Source: a virus
Lineage: Duplodnaviria > Heunggongvirae > Uroviricota > Caudoviricetes
DNA length: 64,000 bases
Direction: 5' to 3' (one strand)
IMG/VR virus record: IMGVR_UViG_2879469214_000007
Coordinates: 1-64,000 of that record
Position 1 is the stretch's first letter; each line of letters opens with the position of its first letter. Position numbers and translations under genes: made by a program. Under the pieces are notes generated by a model, which saw only the letters and a program-made list of their open reading frames with translations, was not told the DNA's origin and did no database searches. This document shows positions 51,667-51,960 of the stretch, one piece after another.

Positions 51667-51960
51667 TTACTTGATGATTTCCCAGTCTTCCGCCAAAACA
51701 TCGGCTTGAGACGCTATCCATCCCGGTTGCCATTGCCCTGCCGCTGTCCACATTGCGATATAAGGTTGTGAATCTAACGCAACACCTTCTCCAATGTGCT
51801 TACTGGTACGACCATTTACAACCCCTGCTTCAAGATACAGAGCTGGCATAAGAGCAACCCACATGCCCTTACCATTCCATCCTTGACGAGCAACTTTATT
51901 CCCAGCTTTTAAAGCTTCAATTGCTTTCCCAAAATCCAAATTTCTGCCCTCCTTATCCAA
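51667..51960 (-). CDS. DUF2829 family protein (Tad2-like, candidate anti-Thoeris gcADPR sponge)
   Basis: [30 protein letters not shown]...[10 protein letters not shown] matches the DUF2829 hallmarks. The anti-Thoeris protein Tad2 is the reference member of DUF2829. Confidence 0.55.
   Translation of the reverse strand: [97 protein letters not shown]

Follow-up and report, generated by a model that had tools for sequence, protein, structure and literature searches.

The stretch of viral DNA considered here, positions 1 to 64,000 of IMG/VR record IMGVR_UViG_2879469214_000007 (Caudoviricetes; 64,000 nucleotides (nt) in all, hereafter the window), carries on its minus strand, between a primase gene and a ribonucleotide reductase (RNR) cluster, a small gene whose product of 90 amino acids (aa) belongs to the Tad2/DUF2829 (PF11195) family. 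Judged from the sequence and from a structural model, this membership is not in doubt. By analogy with characterized members of the family, the protein would act as a tetrameric sponge that withdraws an ADP-ribose-derived signal made by a Thoeris-type TIR-domain defence, a reading to which we assign a probability of about 0.7. The narrower proposal, namely that the ligand is specifically 3' cyclic ADP-ribose (3'cADPR/gcADPR), we favour only slightly. A role as gcADPR sponge is what family membership would suggest, and the adenine side of the ligand pocket has features that call for a separate discussion.

Gene model and family membership

An earlier note on this DNA had described the gene as a protein of 97 aa at 51667-51960, with no strand given. 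The quoted translation is an exact match to a minus-strand open reading frame (ORF) of that length with a TTG start, so that the ORF itself stands; its length does not, a product of 90 aa being likelier. Translation most probably begins at an in-frame TTG, 51939-51937, which follows a Shine-Dalgarno sequence at a suitable place (Table 1), whereas no such sequence was found before the TTG at 51960, a codon lying within the final codons of the upstream gene (stop codon 51955-51953). Moreover, an identical 90-aa protein is present at NCBI (P0001, 100% identity) as a 'DUF2829 domain-containing protein' of Paenibacillus xylanexedens. For these reasons we take the gene to be 51667-51939. Most close homologues are likewise 90 aa long and start at the same position.

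The only Pfam match of the protein is to PF11195 (Tad2-like), at 90.3 bits (E = 1.1e-25; gathering score 25), and it spans positions 2-73 of the 73 in the profile. PHROG 1048 and PHROG 872, both without functional annotation, match as well, and no model was matched in a scan of NCBIfam. When the protein was compared with PDB sequences using phmmer, all significant matches (E from 1.6e-18 to 2.6e-11) were Tad2/AcrIIA7-family proteins: SptTad2 (8WJD, E = 1.6e-18), ModTad2 (9EIB/8V3E, 3.9e-16), HgmTad2/AcrIIA7 (8KBI, 8.9e-15), pdAcrIIA7 (9KZR, 4.9e-13) and SPO1 Tad2 (8SME, 2e-11).

An AlphaFold2 monomer model, built on 107 homologues, reached a predicted local distance difference test score (pLDDT) of 95.7 and a predicted template modelling score (pTM) of 0.81. 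Like SPO1 Tad2 as described in the literature, it is built in the order alpha1, beta-strands, alpha2, beta-strands, alpha3, beta. A Foldseek comparison of this model with the PDB finds Tad2 structures alone: they make up the best 24 matches (E <= 1.5e-6, TMq 0.68-0.81), led by 8kbi (HgmTad2/AcrIIA7, TMq 0.81), and the next match has E = 1.6. Profile, sequence similarity to the Tad2 structures solved so far and predicted fold thus all bear out the assignment to DUF2829 made in the earlier note.

The family is large, with 1583 homologues at E <= 1e-5 and 5204 clusters (50% identity) at E <= 1e-3, and the gene is an ordinary further member of it that leaves knowledge of Tad2 unchanged. An N-terminal extension of 45-70 aa, reminiscent of the 'head domain' of pdAcrIIA7, occurs in many close homologues (P0049, P0052-P0054, P0059, P0064, P0069 and P0096; 68-73% identical over the Tad2 part), and one of these homologues has a PF14083 domain. 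Our protein has no extension.

The ligand pocket

The pocket was mapped by aligning our protein with SPO1 Tad2 (taken from the genome record, L002:47122-47391), SptTad2, ModTad2 and HgmTad2, to which it is 42%, 43%, 46% and 39% identical, respectively. The published ligand contacts of SPO1 Tad2 are W25, N26, I63, T65, D67, H71, W73, S76, T78 and D79; in the same order, they correspond in our protein to W21, N22, M63, T65, A67, Q71, W74, S77, A79 and D80. The core that binds ribose and phosphate is kept, in the form of W21, N22, G23, W74, S77 and D80 (W21, N22, G23, W87, S90 and D93 in HgmTad2), and its residues are nearly invariant in 120 close and 150 diverse homologues. These residues occupy positions equivalent to those mutated in HgmTad2, where the W21A/N22A and S90A/T92A/D93A mutants show markedly lowered gcADPR binding. 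The tetramerization residues of alpha1 (F3, G4, A6, L10, K11 and G13) are invariant with respect to all four solved homologues.

By analogy with the solved members, the 90-aa protein would form a homotetramer with two pockets, each located between non-dimeric protomers. The pockets would bind and sequester the ADP-ribose-derived signal issued by a TIR-domain (Thoeris-type) defence protein of the host and, once this signal is removed, an NAD-depleting or otherwise toxic effector would never be switched on.

Comparison with the solved homologues shows where our protein departs from each of them. SPO1 Tad2 (gp34.65; PDB 8SME/8SMF/8SMG), the founding member, is alike in length (89 against 90 aa), in the order of its fold elements, in its W-N-G and W...S-x-x-D pocket motifs and in its origin from a large Bacillales phage. 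It differs by T78, D67 and H71, found as A79, A67 and Q71 in our protein, by an insertion of 23 instead of 28 aa, and by the location of its gene, which is found not in an nrd block but towards the end of the genome, in the company of small early genes. ModTad2, or MoTad2 (PDB 8V3E, 9EIB), has the top identity among solved homologues, an insertion of 27 aa and, as in our protein, a residue other than Thr at the adenine-contact site (Ser, against Ala here); it reads A-T-W before the conserved Trp where our protein reads Q-P-G-W.

HgmTad2/AcrIIA7 and SptTad2 (PDB 8KBI-8KBM, 8WJD), the latter being the best sequence match, share the gcADPR core residues but differ through an insertion of 35-41 aa, which forms a pocket for cyclic dinucleotides together with R31, L36, F70 and N85. 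In our protein L36 and P32 are kept, whereas R31, F70 and N85 of HgmTad2 are replaced by M31, S57 and P72. Given the short insertion and these substitutions, a canonical cGG/cGAMP pocket is unsupported. The insertion of our protein contains conserved residues of its own (N42, R44, T45, K47 and H48), which were considered as a second ligand pocket; this candidate was dropped, as their conservation declines to roughly 50% or below across the wider Gln71 clade.

Genomic context and expression signals

The earlier note had placed the gene between the primase gene and nrdI-E-F, and the gene map bears this out (Table 1). Genes are closely spaced in this region: a 105-aa gene with a weak OB-fold signal lies 13 nt from the Tad2 start, 51 nt separate the Tad2 gene from an 83-aa gene (orf83), and orf83 in turn overlaps nrdI. 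The 105-aa protein had no match among PDB sequences. The orf83 product is basic-tailed and devoid of Cys, which rules it out as an NrdH redoxin.

Table 1. Coding sequences and putative expression signals in and around the Tad2 locus and the NAD/ADP-ribose islet (window coordinates)
Feature	Position	Strand	Details and evidence
RecA	56912-58048	minus	minus-strand block
DnaB	54953-56485	minus	minus-strand block
YpsA/SLOG-family gene	54394-54912	minus	Pfam E = 3e-25; PDB 2NX2 E = 2.8e-11
FkbM-type methyltransferase	53578-54363	minus	minus-strand block
Near-consensus sigma-A-type promoter	53577-53606	minus	TTGACC-18-TATAAT, 11/12, upstream of primase; consensus scan
DnaG-type primase	52384-53550	minus	Pfam Toprim_2, Toprim_4, DNAG_N
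Promoter-like sequence	52320-52347	minus	GTGGCA-16-TG-TATAAT, 10/12, extended -10, in the primase/OB-fold gap; consensus match only
105-aa gene, weak SSB/PriB-like OB-fold signal	51953-52270	minus	Pfam SSB E = 0.009, NCBIfam PriB E = 1.5e-4, both sub-threshold
Seven extra codons of the 97-aa ORF, probably untranslated	51940-51960	minus	overlap the stop of the upstream gene; sequence read
Shine-Dalgarno sequence of the Tad2-like gene	51948-51954	minus	AAGGAGG, 8-nt spacer to the TTG at 51939; read from sequence
Tad2-like (DUF2829) coding sequence, preferred model	51667-51939	minus	90 aa, TTG start; Pfam, PDB sequence matches, AlphaFold2, identical NCBI protein
orf83, 83 aa	51364-51615	minus	no match in Pfam, PHROG or NCBIfam; stop overlaps the nrdI start
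nrdI	51005-51364	minus	Pfam Flavodoxin_NdrI
nrdE	48894-50984	minus	Pfam Ribonuc_red_lgC/lgN/RNR_N
nrdF	47840-48829	minus	Pfam Ribonuc_red_sm
Intrinsic-terminator-like hairpin closing the nrd block	47562-47583	minus	8-bp stem, TTTTTATTTGT tail, T tract
DnaE-type polymerase III alpha, further downstream	42344-46285	minus	
NADAR gene	11425-11994	plus	NCBIfam model TIGR02464
Prs-like/Adps-like gene, 287 aa	12026-12889	plus	Pfam Pribosyltran (weak); ribP_PPkin 78 bits, cut-off 113
Nampt-like/Namat-like gene, 571 aa	13111-14826	plus	NAPRTase and NAMPT_N; PRK09198 557 bits

The region 47514-58101 contains four near-consensus promoter sites of the TTGACA-18-TATAAT type (11-12 of 12 matches), all on the minus, coding strand, all with an 18-nt spacer, and all directly upstream of gene starts (58101, 54956, 53606 and 47543). 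This number compares with an expectation of 0.42 +/- 0.68 for sites matching at 11 or more of the 12 positions, and a single Markov shuffle out of 300 reached it. The enrichment is limited to this class of sites, promoter-like sequences overall being no more numerous than in shuffles (21 against 32.8). The promoter-like sequence in the gap between the primase and OB-fold genes is a candidate proximal promoter for a unit comprising the OB-fold gene, Tad2, orf83 and nrdIEF. At the other end, the clearest terminator-like hairpin is that at 47583-47562, with a weaker counterpart within nrdE (50635-50620).

From these signals it seems reasonable to infer that the Tad2-like gene is expressed with replication and nucleotide-metabolism genes from host-type promoters, its partners in the transcript being the OB-fold gene, orf83 and nrdI-E-F. 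Early expression is plausible. As a result of this joint transcription, the sponge would be present before the signal accumulates.

Conservation and divergence in related elements

Two related contigs preserve this arrangement. The first, a 159,910-bp contig of Paenibacillus illinoisensis (L003), has the same gene order, with the Tad2 orthologue at L003:6001-6273. In the second, a more distant metagenomic contig of 162,770 bp (L008), the primase, OB-fold and Tad2 genes and a small ORF precede RNR genes of a different class, with an ATP-cone. The 105-aa OB-fold gene is co-conserved beside Tad2 in both contigs, and the identity of orf83 amounts to 100% in L003 and 53% in L008. Genes 69-80% identical to Tad2 also occur in Bacillus elements of 155-235 kb, where they adjoin a Phage_gp49_66 gene, which argues that the Tad2 gene moves between large Bacillales phages.

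Between the window and L003, the Tad2 orthologues are 87.8% identical in protein and 89.7% identical in DNA. Their non-synonymous (dN) and synonymous (dS) divergences are 0.067 and 0.30, giving a dN/dS of 0.22: the gene is under purifying selection. It is nonetheless by far the most diverged gene of the stretch compared, as the flanking genes have protein identities of 98.7-100% with dN <= 0.01, the exception being YpsA (91%, with a length difference). The eleven replacements in Tad2 include W64M, A67T, Q69K and I75V on the side of the pocket. This divergence hot spot could be either a recombination patch or the outcome of an arms race; dS being raised and the numbers small, recombination is as likely as accelerated change. 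In the comparison with L008, Tad2 (68.5% identity) diverges no faster than its neighbours (53-74%).

A stand-alone gene of the YpsA/SLOG family, situated 2.4 kb upstream of the Tad2 gene, is kept in both L003 and L008. The ThsA sensor of type I Thoeris binds 3'cADPR through a SLOG domain and, by analogy, the phage YpsA/SLOG protein could be a further binder of nucleotide signals.

Ligand specificity and alternative readings

Characterized sponges of this family have diverse targets: depending on the member, the system blocked is Thoeris type I, II or IV, CBASS or Pycsar (PMC12393519). SPO1 Tad2 inhibits type I Thoeris and leaves type II unaffected, Tad2_71 blocks types I, II and IV, and HgmTad2 binds cyclic dinucleotides as well. 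Later work has added Thoeris types whose signal is 2'cADPR or canonical cADPR, some of them of Paenibacillus origin.

Several observations weigh against the preferred reading. The only hydrogen bond to adenine is made by a Thr (T78 in SPO1 Tad2, T92 in HgmTad2) that is replaced by Ala79 in our protein, and the water-coordinating D67 and H71 of SPO1 Tad2 are Ala67 and Gln71. Gln71 is invariant among the 120 close homologues, 90 of which have Ala, and none Thr, at position 79. In the 150 diverse representatives, aligned with hmmalign, Gln71 is accompanied by a residue other than Thr at position 79 in 99 cases and by Thr79 in 6, against 15 and 28 cases, respectively, for residues other than Gln at position 71 (Fisher p = 7e-14, a statistic that ignores phylogeny). 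We read the combination of Ala79 and Gln71 as the character of a large 'WQPGW...SQAD' Tad2 subclade and not as an accident. Residues other than Gln occupy position 71 in the four solved homologues and in all five that Yirmiya et al. assayed (Table S12), and we traced no binding or infection data for WQPGW...SQAD members in the literature, the 18 Tad2 sequences tested by Hadary et al. being left uncompared. Ligands also differ within the family: ModTad2 recognizes His-ADPR and cUMP/cCMP and fails to inhibit type I Thoeris. Finally, when 84 sponge homologues (Acb2, Tad1 and Tad2 together) were tested against seven systems, 19 blocked none (PMC12393519).

The pocket differences and the behaviour of ModTad2, which has Ser at the Thr site, speak for a Tad2-family sponge with a remodelled adenine side (Gln71/Ala79 in place of Val or His71/Thr79) and a ligand other than gcADPR. 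This could be His-ADPR (type II Thoeris), N7-cADPR (type IV), or one of the signals of newer Thoeris types, 2'cADPR or canonical cADPR; another option is a second pocket, located in the insertion, that would take up a cyclic mono- or dinucleotide. Some Tad2 homologues are known to inhibit Thoeris IV, Pycsar or CBASS, many more TIR signals have been described, and the pocket-side differences between sister phages point in the same direction. We still consider a different ligand unlikely. The ribose/phosphate core is intact, and the E. coli AIEC_UM149 homologue, with Gly at the Thr site, is a verified inhibitor of type I Thoeris (Yirmiya et al., Table S12), which means that the adenine-site Thr is not essential and that its loss alone is no argument against gcADPR binding. 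Furthermore, the residues for cGG are replaced and the insertion is short, as described above, and the association of Gln71 with Ala79 has the phylogenetic limit already stated. A bolder version, in which the whole WQPGW...SQAD clade uses its rebuilt adenine side to sequester a TIR-derived signal other than 3'cADPR (canonical cADPR, 2'cADPR, N7-cADPR, His-ADPR or a novel molecule), appears doubtful to us. If it were true, the pocket-side changes between sister phages would reflect an ongoing retuning of specificity.

Two readings would take the protein away from TIR signals, and both strike us as very improbable. One is an AcrIIA7-like anti-CRISPR activity, whereby the positive groove of the tetramer would bind tracrRNA and block assembly of the Cas9 ribonucleoprotein. 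HgmTad2/AcrIIA7 is indeed among the closest solved relatives, and a 2026 study reports that head-less AcrIIA7 binds tracrRNA through K58, K66 and K71, equivalent to K11, K19 and K24 of HgmTad2. Our protein, which has no head domain, keeps K11 and K24, but these are family-wide invariants and therefore non-discriminating, and K19 is replaced by Gln. Its net charge, by residue count, is about -1 compared with about +2 for HgmTad2, and K93 and R101 in the insertion of pdAcrIIA7 are without clear equivalents, in a segment that does not align. Anti-CRISPR and sponge activities are, besides, not mutually exclusive. The other reading is a role in nucleotide metabolism or replication and not in counter-defence, for instance as a small nucleotide-binding regulator linked to RNR. 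The tight packing of the gene with nrdI-E-F would fit this idea, as would the retention of its slot between the primase/OB-fold genes and RNR in the diverged L008, in spite of the different RNR class. However, the close homologues of the Bacillus elements lie in an unrelated context, all characterized members of the family are anti-defence proteins, and local divergence is higher than in the flanking replication genes.

A putative NAD/ADP-ribose islet

The preferred reading, a tetrameric sponge against a Thoeris-type signal, had been combined in the earlier note with a NARP1 system elsewhere in the same phage, to form two layers of counter-defence: a signal sponge and NAD+ restoration. NARP1 is a gene pair, Adps and Namat, described together with its ADPR-PP chemistry and with an adenine selectivity clamp of Namat, which consists of R40, F392 and Y396 in phage SpbetaL1 (PMC12774641). 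A NARP1-like pair is present in the window, where a Prs-like and a Nampt-like gene are adjacent and preceded by a NADAR gene. The three genes (11425-14826, plus strand) are located 37 kb from the Tad2 gene and on the opposite strand. The resemblance to the SpbetaL1 system lies in the adjacency, on one strand, of a divergent Prs-like gene and a Nampt-like gene (the Prs-like protein counts as divergent because of its ribP_PPkin score, which is below the cut-off); the difference lies in the extra NADAR gene directly upstream.

The same adjacency of Prs and Nampt genes is found in Bacillus phage vB_BcoS-136 and in the nearest phage relatives, Tsamsa-like Bacillus siphoviruses of 160-170 kb, with which the Namat-like protein shares 55-61% identity. 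Taken with the NADAR gene, whose product would possibly reverse ADP-ribosylation, the pair looks like an NAD/ADP-ribose counter-defence islet. The proposal of two layers is plausible and agrees with the gene content of the window.

Phage lineage and other genes

The window is part of contig RPHH01000009.1 (160,979 bp), from the isolate assembly GCA_003833245.1 of Paenibacillus xylanexedens. Its phage gene set includes a DnaE-type Pol III alpha, DnaB, primase, RecA, nrdIEF, ThyA, dihydrofolate reductase (DHFR) and a sigma factor. A search for near-identical DNA with positions 48000-56500 of the window found no match in 50,697 phage records, and the phage was placed through its proteins instead; in DnaE, gut phage contigs come no closer than 37% identity. 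Other assemblies contain sister contigs of 153-165 kb. The whole looks like an undescribed lineage of large phages or episomal prophages.

Other genes of the window were noted as well. At 29586-32867 and 34682-35554, on the minus strand, two GT4 glycosyltransferases (also matched by a 'GT4-conflict' model) stand beside a nucleotidyl transferase, with a patatin-like phospholipase nearby; these genes may have surface- or DNA-modifying and lipid-acting functions. Unusual accessory genes on the plus strand (4498-7881 and 15347-16288) encode an SPFH/Band-7 protein, a DUF932 protein and two tandem Amidoligase_2 paralogues (6026-6916 and 6916-7881).

Significance

With the Tad2-like gene, a correctly identified counter-defence gene is added to an uncultured Paenibacillus phage lineage of about 161 kb. 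The phage appears to stack signal sequestration by Tad2 on an NAD/ADP-ribose repair islet, an observation that is useful both for genome annotation and for predicting which host defences, whether TIR/Thoeris-type or NAD-depleting, shape this group of phages. Beyond this phage, interest centres on ligand specificity in the Gln71/Ala79 subclade.

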